From a virus: a DNA stretch of 13,094 bases. Position numbers and translations under genes: made by a program. The notes under the pieces were generated by a model. It was given only the letters and a program-made list of their open reading frames with translations. It was not told the origin of the DNA and ran no database searches. Shown here piece by piece: positions 160 to 11,145 of this stretch. The stretch is taken from the UHGV virus genome UHGV-0365212. One strand, 5' to 3'. Position 1 is the stretch's first letter, and every line of letters starts with the position of its first letter.

Positions 160-249
160 TCTTGACCTTGTGTTGTGCGGATTGATATTCAGTGCTGATA
201 TTCACCTTTATAGCGAACACCTTTACCCGGATATTATCGTGAGGATGCG

Positions 250-930
250 TCATCGCCATTGCTCCCCAAATACAAAACCAATTTCAGCCAGTGCCTCGTC
301 CATTTTTTCGATGAACTCCGGCACCATCTCGTTAAAACTCGCCATGTACTTTTCATCCCGCTCAACCACGACATAATGCAGTCCTTCACGCTTCATACGC
401 GGGTCATAGTTGGCAAAGTACCAGGCATCTTTTTGTGTCACCCACATGCTGTACTGCACCTGGGCCATGTAAGCCGATTTTATGGCCTCGAAACCACCGA
501 GCCGGAACTTCATGAAATCCCGGGAGGTAAACGGGCATTTCAGTTCAAGGCCGTTGCCGTCACTGCATAAACCATCGGGAGAGCAGGCGGTGCGCATACT
601 TTCGTCGCGATAGATGATCGGGGATTCAGTAACATTCACGCCGGAAGTGAACTCAAAGAGGGCTCTGGCGTCGTTCTCGTACTGTTTTCCCCAGGCCAGC
701 GCCTTAGCGTTAACTTCCGGAGCCACACCGGTGCAAACCTCGGCAAGCAGGGTGTGGAAGTAGGACATTTTCATGTCAGGCCACTTCTTTCCGGAGCGGG
801 GTTTTGCTATCACATTGTGAACTTCTGAAGCGGTGATGACGCCGAGCCGTAATTTGTGCCATGCATCATCCCCCTGTTCGACAGCTCTCACGTCGATCCC
901 GGTACGCTGCAGGATAATGTCCGGTGTCAT
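250..930 (-). CDS. exo: lambda exonuclease (Red-alpha, 5'-3' dsDNA exonuclease), 226 aa
   Basis: ORF-track translation [27 protein letters not shown]...GFVFGEQWR matches my recollection of phage lambda Exo almost residue for residue; start codon overlaps bet stop (ATGA), as in lambda. Confidence 0.95.
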
Positions 931-1712
931 GCTGCCACCTTCTGCTCAGTGGCTTTCTGTTTCAGGAATCCAAGAGCTTTCACTGCTTCGGCCTGTGTCA
1001 GTTCTGACGATGCGCGAATGTCGCGGCGAAATATCTGGGAACAGAGCGGCAATAAGTCGTCATCCCATGTTTTATCCAGGGCAATCAGCAGAGTGTTAAT
1101 CTCCTGCATGGTTTCATCGTTAACCGGAGTGATGTCGCGTTCCGGCTGACGTTCTGCAGTGTATGCGGTATTTTCGACAATGCGCTCGGCTTCATCCTTG
1201 TCATAGATACCAGCAAATCCGAAGGCCAGACGGGCACACTGAATCATGGCTTTATGCCGTAACATCCGTTTGGGATGCGACTGCCACGGTCCGGTGATTT
1301 CTCTGCCTTCGCGGGTTTTGAATGGTTCGCGGCGGCATTCATCCATCCACTCGGTAACGCAGATCGGATGATTGCGGTCTTTGCGGTAAATCCGGCATGT
1401 GCAGGATTCGTTGTCCTGTTCAAAGTCCATGCCGTCAAACTGCTGGTTTTCGTTGATGATGCGGGACCAGCCATCAACGCCCACCACCGGAACGATGCCG
1501 TTCTGCTTATCAGGGAAGGCGTAAATTTCTTTCGTCCACGGATTAAGACCGTACTGGTTGGCGACGATCAGCAATGCGATGAACTGCGCATCGCTGGCAT
1601 CACCTTTAAATGCCGTCTGGCGAAGAGTGGTGATCAGTTCCTGTGGGTCGACAGAATCCATGCCGACTCGTTCAGCCAGCTTCCCAGCCAGCGTTGCGAG
1701 TGCTGTACTCAT
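927..1712 (-). CDS. bet: lambda Beta single-strand annealing protein (Red-beta), 261 aa
   Basis: Translation [37 protein letters not shown]...KATEQKVAA matches recalled lambda Bet over its full length; sits between gam and exo on the same strand. Confidence 0.95.
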
Positions 1713-1717
1713 CCGTT

Positions 1718-2014
1718 TTATACCTCTGAATCAATATCAACCTGGTGGTGAGCAATGGTTTCAACCATGTACCGGATGTGTTCCGCCATGCGCTCCTGAA
1801 ACTCAACATCGTCATCAAATGCACGGGTAATGGCTTTTTTGCTGGCCCCGTGGCGTTGCAAATGATCGATGCATAGCGATTCAAACAGGTGCTGGGGCAG
1901 GCCTTTTTCCATGTCGTCTGCCAGTTCTGCCTCTTTCTCTTCACGGGCGATCTGCTGGTAGTGACGCGCCCAGCTCTGAGCCTCAAGACGATCCTGAATG
2001 TAATAAGCGTTCAT
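1718..2014 (-). CDS. gam: lambda Gam, RecBCD inhibitor; only the 98-aa short form (GamS) is encoded because the upstream long-form start is lost at a deletion junction
   Basis: Translation [44 protein letters not shown]...[10 protein letters not shown] matches recalled lambda Gam C-terminal 98 aa; AGGAG Shine-Dalgarno 7 nt upstream of the ATG; lambda-like 5' sequence persists only to about position 2090. Confidence 0.9.
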
Positions 2015-2350
2015 GGCTGAACTCCTGAAAATGGCTGTGAAAATATCGCCCGCGAAATGCCAGGCTGATTAGGAAAACAGGAAAGGGGATTAGTGATTGA
2101 GGCCGTTACCGCGTCCGTCGAGAAAAACTTCCACGAGCAAATCACGGGTATAAGTGCGCTCGATGCCGCGATGCAGATAAAGCCGTCCGCGTAAATTAGC
2201 TGATGCAGTCCAGGTACCGGATACTGAAAAATTACGCCAAAACGCTGACAGTAACAGGCGTATGAAGTCAGAGATAACGACCGGTTGATACCGTTTTATT
2301 GATTTTTGCTGGCAATTGTCATGCTGGTCTGATTTTTGTGGAGAAAGTTG

Positions 2351-2734
2351 ATGCGTGATATTCAGATGGTTCTTGAGCGTTGGGGGGCATGGGCGGCTAA
2401 TAACCATGAGGATGTGACCTGGTCGTCCATTGCTGCCGGTTTTAAGGGATTGCTTCCTTCAAAAGTAAAATCCCGTCCGCAATGCTGTGATGATGACGCG
2501 ATGATCGTTTGCGGGTGCATGGCCCGTCTGAAAAAGAACAACAGCGATTTGCACGATTTATTAGTGGATTATTATGTCGGCGGTATGACATTCATGTCAC
2601 TGGCAAGTAAGCATCGTTGCTCTGATGGTTATATCGGGAAAAAGTTACAGAAGGCTGAGGGAATAATTGAAGGGATGTTAATGGCATTAGATATCCGGTT
2701 AGAGATGGATATCGTTGTTAATAACTCTAATTAA
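2351..2734 (+). CDS. Q: late-gene antiterminator Q, short phage-21/DLP12 QuuD-like type (127 aa)
   Basis: ATG at 2351 preceded by GGAGA with 7-nt spacer (the ORF-track start at 2336 is a TTG); product [26 protein letters not shown]...[16 protein letters not shown] is Cys-rich and resembles the short Q family as I recall it; positioned just upstream of a porin/lysis module as in DLP12-type prophages. Confidence 0.7.
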
Positions 2735-2751
2735 TACGCCAATTATTTACT

Positions 2752-2785
2752 AAAAGTTATTAAAAATGGGGCGTTGAAACGCCCC
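2752..2785 (-). terminator. candidate intrinsic terminator for the porin gene (minus strand)
   Basis: GC-rich hairpin GGGGCG-ttgaaa-CGCCCC at 2768-2785; on the minus strand it is followed by a U-rich tract (AUUUUUAAUAACUUUUA); about 140 nt downstream of the porin stop. Confidence 0.45.
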
Positions 2786-2873
2786 CAAAAATAAAGGGTA
2801 ATATATAACAGAAGGTTTGTATAGTTAGAAGCAAGGTTGTGCTTCTAAAGGAAGTGGCTTGAGGGAGCCACTT

Positions 2874-2915
2874 ATATGTTGGGGAGGCAAAGCCTCCCAC
2901 AACATATCTTTTAGT
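2874..2915 (+). terminator. long imperfect hairpin followed by CUUUU; candidate terminator downstream of Q (tR'-like?)
   Basis: About 15-bp stem ATATGTTGGGGAGGC / GCCTCCC(A)CAACATAT with one bulge and AAA loop, then CTTTTAG on the plus strand. Confidence 0.4.
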
Positions 2916-2922
2916 AATCAAA

Positions 2923-4005
2923 TTAGAACTGGTAAACCATACCTACAGCAACGATATCATCGGTAGCAACGCCAGATGCTTTCGTGAAATCGCTCTTATC
3001 AATCAGGTTGATTTTGTAGTCAACAAAAGTGGACATATTTTTGTTGAAGTAATAGGTTGCACCTACATCAACATATTCAACCAGGTCCTGATCACCCCAA
3101 ACACCCAAGTCTTTTCCTTTAGAATGCAGGTAAGCAACGGATGGACGCAGGCCGAAGTCGAACTGATATTGTGCAACAGCTTCGAAGTTTTGTGCTTTGT
3201 TGGCAATATGGTTATTACCAAAAACAGTCATGTTCTGGGTTTCAGAATAGGTGGTGGCCAGATAGATGTTGTTCGCATCATATTTCAGACCAGCTGCCCA
3301 TACTTCAGCATTTTGACCAGAAGCATTCAGACCGTTGTTACCGTAGATAACCTGATTATTAGTGCGATCAGATTTAGCATAGGTTGCACCCACGCCGAAT
3401 CCTTCATACTCATAAGTAGTTGAGAAACCGAAACCATCGCCATTAGCTTCAGTTACTTCTTTTCGGTCATTTTTGCCCTGATACTGAGCTGCAAAGTTCA
3501 GGCCATCAACCAGACCAAAGAAGTCGTTGTTACGATAAGTTGCAACACCTGTGGTGCGACCAGTCATGAATACATCTGTTTGGGTCCAGGTATCGCCACC
3601 GAATTCTGGCAGAACGTCGGTCCATGCACCAATATCGTATGCTACACCGTAGTTACGGCCATAATCGATGGAGCCGTAGTCACCGAATTTCAGGCCAGCG
3701 AAGGCAAGACGGGTTTTATCTTTGGAGGAACCTTGAGATTCAGCGCGGTTGCCTTTGAATTCATATTCCCACTGACCGAAACCAGTCAGTTGATCGTTGA
3801 TTTGGGTTTCACCTTTGAAGCCAAGACGGGCATAAGTAGTATCACCATCATCTGCATCATTAGAGGAGAAGTAGTGCTTAGCATTAACTTTCCCGTACAG
3901 ATCCAGCTTGTTACTGTCTTTATTATAAATTTCAGCTGCCTGAGCAGACATCGCCATCAGTACTGATGCAGCTACAGCAGAAATTGCCACTGTTAATTTT
4001 TTCAT
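2923..4005 (-). CDS. nmpC: prophage-encoded OmpC/OmpF-family general porin (NmpC/Lc-like), 360 aa with signal peptide
   Basis: Translation starts [30 protein letters not shown] (signal peptide) and ends ...VGMVYQF (C-terminal Phe typical of porin beta-barrels); alternating Tyr/Gly-rich strands; AAGGG RBS; sits between Q and the holin on the opposite strand as nmpC/lc does in DLP12/PA-2-type prophages (from memory). Confidence 0.88.
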
Positions 4006-5802: not shown

Positions 5803-5951
5803 ACATCTGAATTTCACAGCGCATCTCACGCGCATATTACATCACCCGAGCCTTTCAGAAAGTTGAGCCTGAGAACTGCCGTATATGGTGGCGACCATCT
5901 CGGGGCGGCTTTTCTGTGAGACAGGCTCACTTTCTAAAAGGTAAAGACGCT

Positions 5952-6440
5952 ATGAACCAATTAGAAGAAAAGCTTCAAAGAATGATTTCCTTATACAAGG
6001 AAGATAACTGCCAAAAAGTTCCTGAAAACATCGCAGAGTTAATGGAATTGGCAAGTGAATTTTCTGGCATGCTTAAGTCGTCAGGTGTTCGGTCAGCGTT
6101 CTTTGTTGAAATGCTGATGCACGGCGGACTTATGGCAACAATGAGACGTGTAATGGAAGACCAGAGAAAAGAACCTCCTCAGGTATACGTTTTGTCATCG
6201 AAGAAAACTGGGCTAACCAAAATTGGGTATTCATCCAACATTCCACAACGCATCAAATCGCTTGGCAACTCTGGACCAGACTGCTTGAAGCTTGAGTGCC
6301 TGATCCCTGGTGGAAGAGAAACTGAAAACATGCTTCATCGCAAATTTGCCGCAAAGAGAAAGCACGGTGAATGGTTCGCCCTGTCCAAGGATGACATTGA
6401 GGGATTGAAATCTGTAGCGATTACTTCTGATGGCTATTAA
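5952..6440 (+). CDS. T5orf172/MUG113-domain (GIY-YIG-like fold) protein with an uncharacterised ~75-aa N-terminal region; moron between Rz and cos
   Basis: C-terminal half PQVYVLSSKKTGLTKIGYSSNIPQRIKSLGN...ETENMLHRKFAAKRKHGEWFALSKDDI fits the T5orf172 pattern (hydrophobic-YVL, KIGxT/S, R, E..LH..F, GEWF); ATG 5952 preferred over in-frame GTG 5916; AT-rich relative to flanking phage genes; has its own upstream gap after a terminator. Confidence 0.6.
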   Translation: MNQLEEKLQRMISLYKEDNCQKVPENIAELMELASEFSGMLKSSGVRSAFFVEMLMHGGLMATMRRVMEDQRKEPPQVYVLSSKKTGLTKIGYSSNIPQRIKSLGNSGPDCLKLECLIPGGRETENMLHRKFAAKRKHGEWFALSKDDIEGLKSVAITSDGY

Positions 6441-8208: not shown

Positions 8209-11145
8209 ATGGAAGTCAACAAAAAGCAGCTGGCTGACATTTTCGGTGCGAGTATCCGTACCATTCAGAACTGGCAGGAGGCTCAGATTGCGTCCATCAG
8301 CCAGAGTGTGGCGCGTTTCTCCTCTGCATCCGGCGTGGAGGTGGACAAGGTCGCTGAAGCCTTCGGGAAGCTGACCACAGAGGGGAATACCAATATCTCC
8401 GGTGTCACGGTGGTGTTCCGGGCCGGTGAGCAGGAGCAGACACCGCCGGAGGGATTTGAATCCTCTGGCTCCGAGACGGTGCTGGGTACGGAAGTGAAAT
8501 ACGACACGCCGATCACCCGGACCATCACGTCGGCAAACATTGACCGTCTGCGTTTTACTTTCGGCGTGCAGGCACTGGTGGAAACCACCTCAAAGGGGGA
8601 CAGGAATCCATCGGAAGTCCGCCTGCTGGTTCAGATACAACGTAACGGTGGCTGGGTGACGGAAAAAGACATCACCATTAAGGGCAAAACCACCTCACAG
8701 TATCTGGCCTCGGTTGTGGTGGATAACCTGCCGCCGCGCCCGTTTAATATCCGGATGCGCAGGATGACGCCGGACAGCACCACAGACCAGCTGCAGAACA
8801 AAACGCTCTGGTCGTCATACACCGAAATTATCGATGTGAAACAGTGCTACCCGAACACGGCACTGGTCGGCGTGCAGGTGGACTCGGAGCAGTTCGGCAG
8901 CCAGCAGGTGAGCCGTAATTATCATCTGCGCGGGCGTATTCTGCAGGTGCCGTCGAATTATAACCCGCAGACGCGGCAATACAGCGGTATCTGGGACGGA
9001 ACGTTTAAACCGGCATACAGCAACAACATGGCCTGGTGTCTGTGGGATATGCTGACCCATCCGCGCTACGGCATGGGGAAACGTCTTGGTGCAGCGGATG
9101 TGGATAAATGGGCGCTGTATGTCATCGGCCAGTACTGCGACCAGTCAGTGCCGGACGGCTTTGGCGGCACGGAACCGCGTATCACCTGTAATGCGTACCT
9201 GACCACACAGCGCAAGGCGTGGGATGTGCTCAGTGATTTCTGCTCGGCGATGCGCTGTATGCCGGTATGGAACGGGCAGACGCTGACGTTCGTGCAGGAC
9301 CGGCCGTCGGATAAGGTGTGGACCTATAACCGCAGTAATGTGGTGATGCCGGATGATGGCGCGCCGTTCCGCTACAGTTTCAGCGCCCTGAAGGACCGCC
9401 ATAATGCCGTTGAGGTGAACTGGATTGACCCGAACAACGGCTGGGAGACGGCGACAGAGCTTGTTGAAGATACGCAGGCCATTGCCCGTTACGGTCGTAA
9501 TGTCACGAAGATGGATGCCTTTGGTTGTACCAGTCGGGGGCAGGCACACCGCGCCGGGCTGTGGCTGATTAAAACGGAACTGCTGGAAACGCAGACCGTG
9601 GACTTCAGCGTGGGTGCTGAAGGGCTTCGCCATGTACCGGGCGATGTCATTGAAATTTGCGATGATGACTATGCCGGTATCAGCATCGGCGGGCGCGTGC
9701 TGGCGGTGAACAGCCAGACCCGGACGCTGACGCTCGACCGTGAAATCACGCTGCCATCTTCCGGCACCACGCTGATAAGCCTGGTTGACGGGCAGGGGAG
9801 TCCGGTCAGCGTGGAGGTCCAGTCCGTCACCGACGGCGTGAAGGTGAAAGTGAGCCGTGTTCCTGACGGCGTTGCAGAATACAGCGTGTGGGGGCTGAAG
9901 CTGCCGACGCTGCGCCAGCGCCTGTTCCGCTGCGTGAGTATCCGTGAGAACGATGACGGCACGTATGCCATCACCGCCGTGCAGCACCTGACTGCCGAAG
10001 TCACCGCAGACAGCGGGGAGTATCAGGTACTGGCCCGCTGGGACACGCCGAAGGTGGTGAAGGGCGTGAGCTTTATGCTTCGCCTGACCGTGGCCGCGGA
10101 TGAAGGCATTGAGCGGCTGGTCAGCACGGCCCGGACGGCGGAAACCACATACCGCTTCACGCAACTGGCGCTGGGGAACTACAGGCTGACAGTCCGGGCA
10201 GTAAATGCCCGGGGACAGCAGGGAGACCCGGCGTCGGTATCGTTCCGGATTGCCGCCCCGGCAGCGCCGTCGCGGATTGAGCTGACACCGGGCTATTTTC
10301 AGATAACCGCCACGCCGCATCTTGCGGTTTATGATCCGACGGTACAGTTTGAGTTCTGGTTCTCGGAAAAGCGGATTGCGGATATCAGGCAGGTTGAAAC
10401 CACAGCCCGCTATCTTGGTACGGCGCTGTACTGGATAGCCGCCAGTATCAATATCAAACCGGGCCATGATTATTACTTTTATATCCGCAGTGTGAACACC
10501 GTTGGCAAATCGGCATTCGTGGAGGCCGTCGGTCGGGCGAGCGATGATGCGGAAGGTTACCTGGATTTTTTCAAAGGCAAGATATTTTCCCTGACATCAG
10601 ACGGAAAGCTGACCGCTAAAAATGCGGATATCAGTGGCAGTGTGAATGCGAACTCAGGGACGCTCAACAATGTCACGATTAATGAGAACTGTCAGATTAA
10701 GGGGAAACTGTCAGCCAACCAGATTGAAGGTGATATTGTCAAAACGGTCAGCAAGTCTTTCCCCCGCACGAACAGTTATGCCAGTGGCACCATCACGGTA
10801 AGAATCAGTGATGATCAGAAATTTGACCGGCAGGTCATGATACCGCCAGTGTTATTCCGCGGTGGTAAGCATGAGAATTTCAACAGTAATAACCAACAGT
10901 CATACTGGTATTCAACCTGCCGGTTAAGAGTGACCCGCAATGGTCAGGAGATTTTTAATCAGTCCACGACGGATGCTCAGGGCGTATTTTCCTCCGTTAT
11001 AGATATGCCTGCCGGACAGGGGACGCTGACACTGACATTCACCGTATCTTCATCAGGAGCGAATAACTGGACACCAACAACCAGTATCAGCGATCTGCTG
11101 GTTGTGGTGATGAAAAAATCCACAGCAGGTATCAGTATCAGCTGA
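8209..11145 (+). CDS. J: in-frame fusion ORF (978 aa): Nu1 residues 1-24, then a ~33-aa segment resembling tape-measure protein H, then tail-tip/host-specificity protein J from about residue 56 to the end; deletion remnant rather than an intact structural gene
   Basis: N-terminus [24 protein letters not shown] equals recalled lambda Nu1; [33 protein letters not shown] matches a motif I recall from lambda gpH; from [26 protein letters not shown] onward the protein tracks lambda J for about 800 residues, with a divergent C-terminal ~230 aa; junctions at about nt 8280 and 8379. Confidence 0.8.

Follow-up and report, generated by a model that had tools for sequence, protein, structure and literature searches.

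A 10,284-bp deletion scar between an intact Red module and the antiterminator gene in a defective lambdoid prophage of the DLP12 family

The stretch of DNA analyzed here (the window) is an entire metagenome contig of 13,094 bases (ENA ERZ27281633 k141_1353), in which a lambda-type Red operon and a late antiterminator gene face away from each other across positions 2015–2350. This interval is very probably the scar of one 10,284-bp deletion in a defective lambdoid prophage that occupies the DLP12 site (argU), with the adjacent Red genes probably left silent or transcribed at a basal level.

Comparison with intact relatives confirmed that the Red operon and the Q region meet at a deletion junction inside 2015–2350, as the initial annotation of the sequence had proposed. 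Three-way alignment, together with an exact base-by-base extension test, resolved the breakpoint to a four-base microhomology, TACC. Window positions 224–2218 correspond without mismatch to positions 39165–37171 of the intact prophage of E. coli MFDS1016424 (NZ_CP106924.1; hereafter L003), and positions 2215–2950 correspond, again without mismatch, to L003 26890–26155. Identity ends exactly at 2218 on the gam side and at 2215 on the Q side, the two parental flanks overlap by TACC only, and the join contains no inserted or filler DNA. The Q-side sequence is likewise 100% identical to ylcG–quuD–porin segments. The segment missing from the window, L003 26887–37170, amounts to 10,284 bp; among the six complete genomes present in both 100%-identity lists (gam side and Q side), the two junction sites lie 10,281 bp apart in four and 10,269 and 10,305 bp apart in the other two.

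The flanks are thus collinear and separated in the intact arrangement, and no repeat that could serve homologous recombination was found at their ends. An overlap of at least 4 bp is expected at approximately 1.6% of random joins, and only 7 of 11 bases around the TACC overlap match. The overlap, the low flanking match and the absence of filler DNA point to an illegitimate, microhomology-mediated join and not to homologous exchange. The flanks carry zero substitutions in 2,731 bp relative to intact prophages, suggesting that the deletion is recent, and a recent event would explain why exo, bet and the short form of gam are still intact; the lack of flank differences could also stem from later gene conversion. 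L003 lies at another integration site, next to ybhC, which makes it a sister of the prophage in the window and not its true parent. An argU-site relative, that of E. coli Combat11I9 (L001), was compared on the left arm only.

According to the annotation of L003, the deletion removed a BamE-like lipoprotein gene at the position of N, the early leftward promoter region, an S24-peptidase (cI-like) repressor gene, genes for a cro-like regulator and a YdaT-domain protein, O-type and P-type replication genes, ren, a DUF4041 gene, a gene with a P22AR C-terminal domain, two small hypothetical ORFs, and the nin region up to ylcG (ybcN, ninE, ybcO, and rusA). At its two ends, kil lost its start and first 26 codons, leaving a fragment with no start codon of its own, and ylcG lost its first 30 codons, leaving a stub that ends 85 nt upstream of quuD. 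The parental 68-aa Kil protein resembles Rac KilR by profile comparison, matching NCBIfam PRK11354 ("FtsZ inhibitor protein") with an E value of 1.8e-17 and 63 bits, below the 92-bit cut-off; the remaining fragment covers profile positions 28–70 of 73 and so falls short of a full-length KilR-type protein. In complete E. coli genomes, this segment is annotated "phage encoded cell division inhibitor". The full-length parental YlcG of L003 matches NCBIfam YlcG_phage_expr (E value, 1.9e-22). An ORF of 105 codons running across the join (2090–2407, minus strand) has no Pfam match and, given that it lacks a convincing Shine-Dalgarno sequence and is antisense to quuD, was taken to be a mechanical by-product. 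A scan of the whole window against Rfam returned no family at threshold.

Neither a repressor gene nor pL, O/P or nin genes were found either in the window or in the longer locus that reaches leftward to int and argU, no repressor occurs among the genes called from int to stf, and the remainder of the window contains neither lambda N/pL sequence nor any piece of the deleted parental interval. The initial annotation had described exo, bet, and gam as intact but severed from the early leftward promoter, immunity, replication, and nin region, and the intact relatives bear this out; the pL/N-like segment that would have spoken against such a separation was sought, and none was present. Its list of absent genes holds for the repressor and immunity functions, O/P, and nin, but not entirely for kil, of which 42 codons and the stop remain. 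Nor can a missing N be put down to the deletion, as the closest intact relatives themselves have no annotated or obvious N homologue: none is annotated in L003 or in phage PhiR26_1, and no N-like ORF lies between repressor and kil. In intact relatives, that position holds the BamE-like lipoprotein gene (L003 36232–36612; L002 5185–5565), which is followed by approximately 480 bp with no annotated gene (L003 36613–37092).

The scar itself would have no function, and its consequences would be regulatory. By removing everything from kil to ylcG, a single deletion would have stripped the prophage of its control and replication genes, leaving a noninducible, nonreplicating remnant. The joint loss of the repressor and of everything that the repressor holds in check is what would make such a deletion survivable for a lysogen. 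The Red genes now lie downstream of antisense quuD, cut off from the repressor-controlled early leftward promoter, and quuD is likewise separated from pR.

Table 1. Coordinates of the Red operon, the deletion junction and neighboring features in the window
Feature	Position	Strand	Basis or remark
exo (lambda exonuclease, 226 aa), intact	250–930	-	Pfam YqaJ; 220/226 residues identical to lambda Exo
bet (Red-beta, 261 aa), intact	927–1712	-	Pfam RecT; 260/261 residues identical to lambda Bet
gam, short form only, 98 aa	1718–2014	-	Pfam Gam, E 3.4e-65, full length; 96/98 identical to lambda GamS
kil-gam intergenic region, lambda-homologous	2015–2089	-	same in undeleted relative
Weak terminator-like hairpin in kil-gam intergenic region	2065–2048	-	terminator scan
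kil', 3' fragment of KilR-like cell-division-inhibitor gene (42/68 codons and stop)	2090–2218	-	WP_000233576.1 in relatives
Chance ORF of 33 codons (GTG start at 2093), antisense to kil'	2093–2194	+	same ORF at L003 37195–37296
Deletion junction, TACC	2215–2218		three-way alignment, extension test
ylcG 3' stub, last 16 codons and stop	2215–2265	+	YRILKNYAKTLTVTGV and stop, the C-terminus of the relative's YlcG
ylcG-quuD intergenic region	2266–2350	+	unaltered by deletion; 100% identical to intact relative
Weak terminator-like hairpin in ylcG-quuD spacer	2308–2328	+	terminator scan
quuD (antiterminator Q, 127 aa), intact	2351–2734	+	Pfam Phage_antitermQ, E 6.3e-54; annotated quuD in relatives
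Sigma-70-like match GTGACA-18-CATAAT (10/12), candidate only	2571–2600	-	only match reading toward gam; antisense inside quuD
Four-hairpin cluster downstream of porin gene	2735–2922	-	fold -67.7 kcal/mol, z -8.2 versus shuffles
Phage porin gene (NmpC/Lc/OmpD-like, 360 aa)	2923–4005	-	Pfam Porin_1; annotated ompC in relatives

The adjacent, codirectional YqaJ, RecT, and Gam genes constitute a lambda Red module with 97–99.6% protein identity to that of lambda (Table 1), and exo is 100% identical at the nucleotide level to its counterparts in the intact relatives L001 and L003. The other mark of this module, expression driven by cI-controlled pL with antitermination by N, has no counterpart in the window. 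The AGGAG ribosome-binding site that had been ascribed to GamS is present 8 nt upstream of the gam ATG, at 2022–2026. Compared with lambda, one extra nucleotide lies 13 nt before this ATG, and the undeleted relative has it as well. The long form of Gam (GamL, 138 aa, with an ATG 120 nt upstream of the GamS start) is not encoded: in-frame TAA stops precede gamS at 2069–2071 and 2090–2092, and the GamL start region of lambda is replaced by a different kil allele. It had been correctly noted that the long-form start is gone and that only GamS could be made, but the deletion was not the cause, as the undeleted L003 is base-for-base identical to the window over 2015–2218. Thus, the end of lambda homology is shared with undeleted relatives, and the loss of GamL predates the deletion.

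The same element carries further deletion joins. At 224–227 (context 194–254), a second join also reads TACC and lacks approximately 1.16 kb present in the prophage of E. coli Combat11I9 (L001 1164–2324), namely a hypothetical gene, a TraR/DksA gene, orf61, DUF1382/orf63, and most of DUF1317/orf60a; this join was not found in complete E. coli genomes. Its right-hand site is the same, within 2 nt, as that of the xisD'|exoD' join in K-12 DLP12. Both K-12 DLP12 joins (xisD'|exoD' and exoD'|peaD'; L010 2570–2580 and 2870–2885) read GAGGTAC, so that all four joins, two in K-12 and two here, center on TA(C). Toward the tail end of the window, positions 8209–11145 (plus strand) encode a 978-codon in-frame chimera made up of the first ~24 codons of nu1/nohD, a tape-measure fragment of ~85–100 nt, and the C-terminal ~900 codons of J. 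This is the product of two further deletions, nu1|H and H|J, the latter with a GA microhomology at 8380–8381, and neither of these joins centers on TA(C). The exact chimera protein occurs on 8 public contigs, and prevalence could be obtained only through this exact-protein look-up of the nu1–J fusion, no complete genome spanning the TACC join at 2215–2218.

The origin and position of the junction could be read in other ways. The initial annotation had placed the breakpoint at approximately 2090, with the GamL start thereby removed and a plus-strand ORF ending at 2192–2194 as the stub of the gene that originally preceded Q. Homology to lambda itself does stop close to this position, running over window positions 224–2099 at 97.1% nucleotide identity and then ceasing. 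However, BLAST showed that the gam-side sequence continues past this point to 2218, with identity up to 100%, in thousands of E. coli prophages in which it is annotated as kil. In the intact relative, too, the cited ORF runs antisense to kil; there it lies ~10 kb from Q and therefore cannot be the stub of a pre-Q gene, that role falling to ylcG; neither this ORF nor the kil allele has a Pfam match. The earlier placement is thus off by approximately 125 nt, and positions ~2090–2099 are, by sequence comparison, a kil-allele mosaic boundary at the kil stop codon, common to undeleted prophages. As a reading of the interval, a breakpoint at ~2090 retains virtually no plausibility, and the case serves as a caution for sequence-only interpretation, in which an allele boundary, where homology to a reference phage ends, can pass for a breakpoint. 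It is just as hard to credit that the join is a chimeric metagenome assembly or an engineered laboratory deletion. The window does come from a short-read metagenome contig, and the join was absent from 5,426 complete E. coli genomes searched by BLAST with window positions 1900–2450, from the GTDB species representatives (0 matches to the junction 40-mer GCTGATGCAGTCCAGGTACCGGATACTGAAAAATTACGCC), and from JGI metagenome contigs (0 matches to a junction 32-mer). Yet the whole 13-kb architecture, junction included, recurs at 100% identity in the isolate assembly GCA_037287345.1 and with 2 base differences in a second one, GCA_003291255.1, and the junction-bearing contigs of these independently assembled isolates extend to ~53–55 kb, running into host sequence upstream of argU. 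The join shows neither scar nor cassette nor filler DNA, the two parental flanks account for each of its bases, and the same element contains other natural deletion joins. Its presence in two independent isolate assemblies demonstrates that the junction is real, and its absence from GTDB representatives and JGI contigs indicates a rare, lineage-specific variant. A third reading would attribute the join to a process guided by sequence instead of to random microhomology. The left junction at 224–227 reads TACC as well, the K-12 xisD'|exoD' join uses the same right-hand site, and both K-12 joins share GAGGTAC. These are only four junctions, however, in a 13-kb window where TACC/GGTA occurs 93 times, and the tetranucleotide is missing from two further joins of this element, nu1|H and H|J. 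No recombinase with TACC specificity could be named. TACC was consequently rejected as a site-specific signal, being unsupported at the other two joins of the element; the common TA(C) is probably due to chance, and a directed process appears very improbable.

With the breakpoint fixed at TACC and the preferred reading of a single deletion in place, the sequence upstream of gam comprises, in minus-strand order, kil', antisense ylcG', antisense quuD, the quuD-porin spacer, and the porin gene, the last being the nearest upstream gene codirectional with gam-bet-exo. It can be soundly inferred from this arrangement that expression of Red would need a local promoter or read-through. A consensus scan of 2090–2350 returned no sigma-70-like site of at least 9/12 on the minus strand. 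The scanned region has fewer sigma-70-like matches than its shuffles (2 versus a mean of 7.0), and the match at 2600–2571 is for this reason regarded as a candidate only and not as evidence of function; if active, it would yield an anti-Q RNA in intact phages and would here read into kil'-gam-bet-exo. No CII-type TTGC-N6-TTGC element, as in a paQ-like antisense promoter, was found on the minus strand of quuD, where counts of this pattern are below chance. The minus-strand RNA of 2925–2735 is the folded segment with four strong hairpins, the last of which (2785–2768) has the form of a canonical intrinsic terminator, GGGGCGTT-TCA-AACGCCCC followed by ATTTTT, suggesting that read-through from the porin gene should be limited. 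The short spacer that holds this porin-side cluster also contains the pR'/tR' region downstream of quuD. Luk and Szybalski reportedly described, in 1983, a lambda tL2 terminator cluster between bet and ral; the weak hairpins at 2147–2131 and 2065–2048 were not relied on as terminators. With no recognizable promoter and a terminator cluster on the porin side, Red is most likely silent or read at no more than a basal level, but leakage through the terminators, or the promoter-like site at 2600–2571, may allow some transcription.

The alternative is that Red came, by accident of the deletion, under a constitutive promoter, in an sbcA-like manner, through either the antisense site in quuD or read-through from the strong porin promoter, so that the lineage would express Exo, Bet, and Gam without repressor control. 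A 10/12 minus-strand consensus match does lie ~550 nt upstream of gam, the porin gene is codirectional with Red, no strong terminator is predicted over 2570–2015 (two weak hairpins only), and the Red genes are intact. The consensus match, however, is a lone one in a region that holds fewer such matches than chance would provide, and the promoter-like sequence occurs in undeleted relatives too, so that the join created nothing new: the single site reading toward gam was there beforehand, and none of at least 9/12 lies in 2090–2350. The porin gene, for its part, is followed by the four hairpins and their canonical terminator, and the intactness of the Red genes is already explained by recency. 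Fortuitous constitutive expression is therefore considered unlikely. Slightly less likely still is a lineage with always-on Exo/Bet/Gam activity, in which an intact, repressor-free Red is transcribed at a low constitutive level; if such a lineage existed, raised short-homology recombination and partial RecBCD inhibition would be expected, and a host expressing Red, unlikely as this is, would amount to a natural recombineering-proficient strain.

The genomic setting of the deletion is that of the DLP12 site. In the isolate locus, the sequence leftward of the window holds a DUF4222 gene, a gene for a 387-aa integrase and, beside the latter, tRNA-Arg(TCT) (L004 219–295). Positions 1–1569 of L004 are 99.55% identical to the K-12 stretch that runs from downstream of fimZ through argU and intD. 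The late region has the order quuD-porin-essD-rrrD-rzpD, with 91.6–92.9% nucleotide identity to the K-12 quuD-nmpC-essD-rrrD-rzpD segment, and the element is devoid of immunity and replication genes. The argU tRNA, the integrase, and the identity to K-12 thus identify the window as part of a defective lambdoid prophage that occupies the DLP12 site in a chromosome of Escherichia type. Further along, the window carries a holin-lysozyme-Rz cassette downstream of quuD (plus strand), DUF1398 and DUF3950 genes, lom, and the start of a tail-fiber gene. The Rz gene is followed by a T5orf172/MUG113-domain gene (5916–6440, plus strand); the same slot holds borD in K-12 DLP12 and a KilA-N gene in MFDS1016424, suggesting a variable cargo slot.

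This deletion is ordinary prophage decay, a new variant of a well-known kind of cryptic prophage, and its significance lies mainly in correct annotation: it adds one more decay route for a lambdoid prophage of the argU-site (DLP12) family. It also illustrates how a lysogen can lose, in one deletion that it survives, the repressor along with every early lethal and replication function. The intact Red genes left behind would either degenerate or be salvaged when incoming lambdoid phages recombine with them. Such rescue has been shown for other DLP12 genes (De Paepe et al. 2014, PMC3945230).

Among known elements, K-12 DLP12 is the closest, but it has decayed differently. Both occupy the argU site with the same integrase, share the late layout quuD-porin-essD-rrrD-rzpD-ybcV-ylcI-nohD at 83–97% identity, lack immunity and replication functions, and have several internal deletions each. 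In K-12, however, the exoD'|peaD' join connects the 3' part of exo to a fragment of P, with loss of bet and gam and retention of ren and nin, whereas the element in the window has exo, bet, and gam intact and lacks the whole stretch from within kil to within ylcG. The porin gene is uninterrupted in the window, while K-12 nmpC carries IS5, and the tail end is a nu1-H-J fusion here as opposed to nohD-aaaD-tfaD in K-12. Intact counterparts of the PhiR26_1, mEp332 and MFDS1016424-prophage type are 98–100% identical over exo-bet-gam-kil and ylcG-quuD-porin and share both the KilR-like kil allele and the short-form-only gam, but they retain the 10.3-kb immunity/replication/nin segment and complete head and tail genes. 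The Red region of phage lambda has the same gene order and overlaps. In contrast, lambda Kil has 47 aa and is unrelated in sequence to the 68-aa KilR-like allele, and here the GamL start is missing, pL and its operators are gone, and N is absent, as it is in the intact relatives.

A functional analogy is offered by recET of the Rac prophage, likewise a recombination module in a defective prophage that is normally not expressed. According to De Paepe et al. 2014 (PMC3945230), repression of recET is complete in MG1655, and the genes become active either through rare sbcA mutations or when lambda captures them. Rac, unlike the present element, has kept its own repressor and promoter, both of which are deleted here with no activating fusion detected, and it encodes RecE/RecT in place of Exo/Bet/Gam. 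Engineered defective lambda prophages of the DY330/DY380 type also carry chromosomal exo-bet-gam; in these, cI857, pL, N, and kil are kept, the cro-bioA segment is deleted, and Red is heat inducible. The controlling region retained in those strains is precisely what was deleted from the prophage described here.
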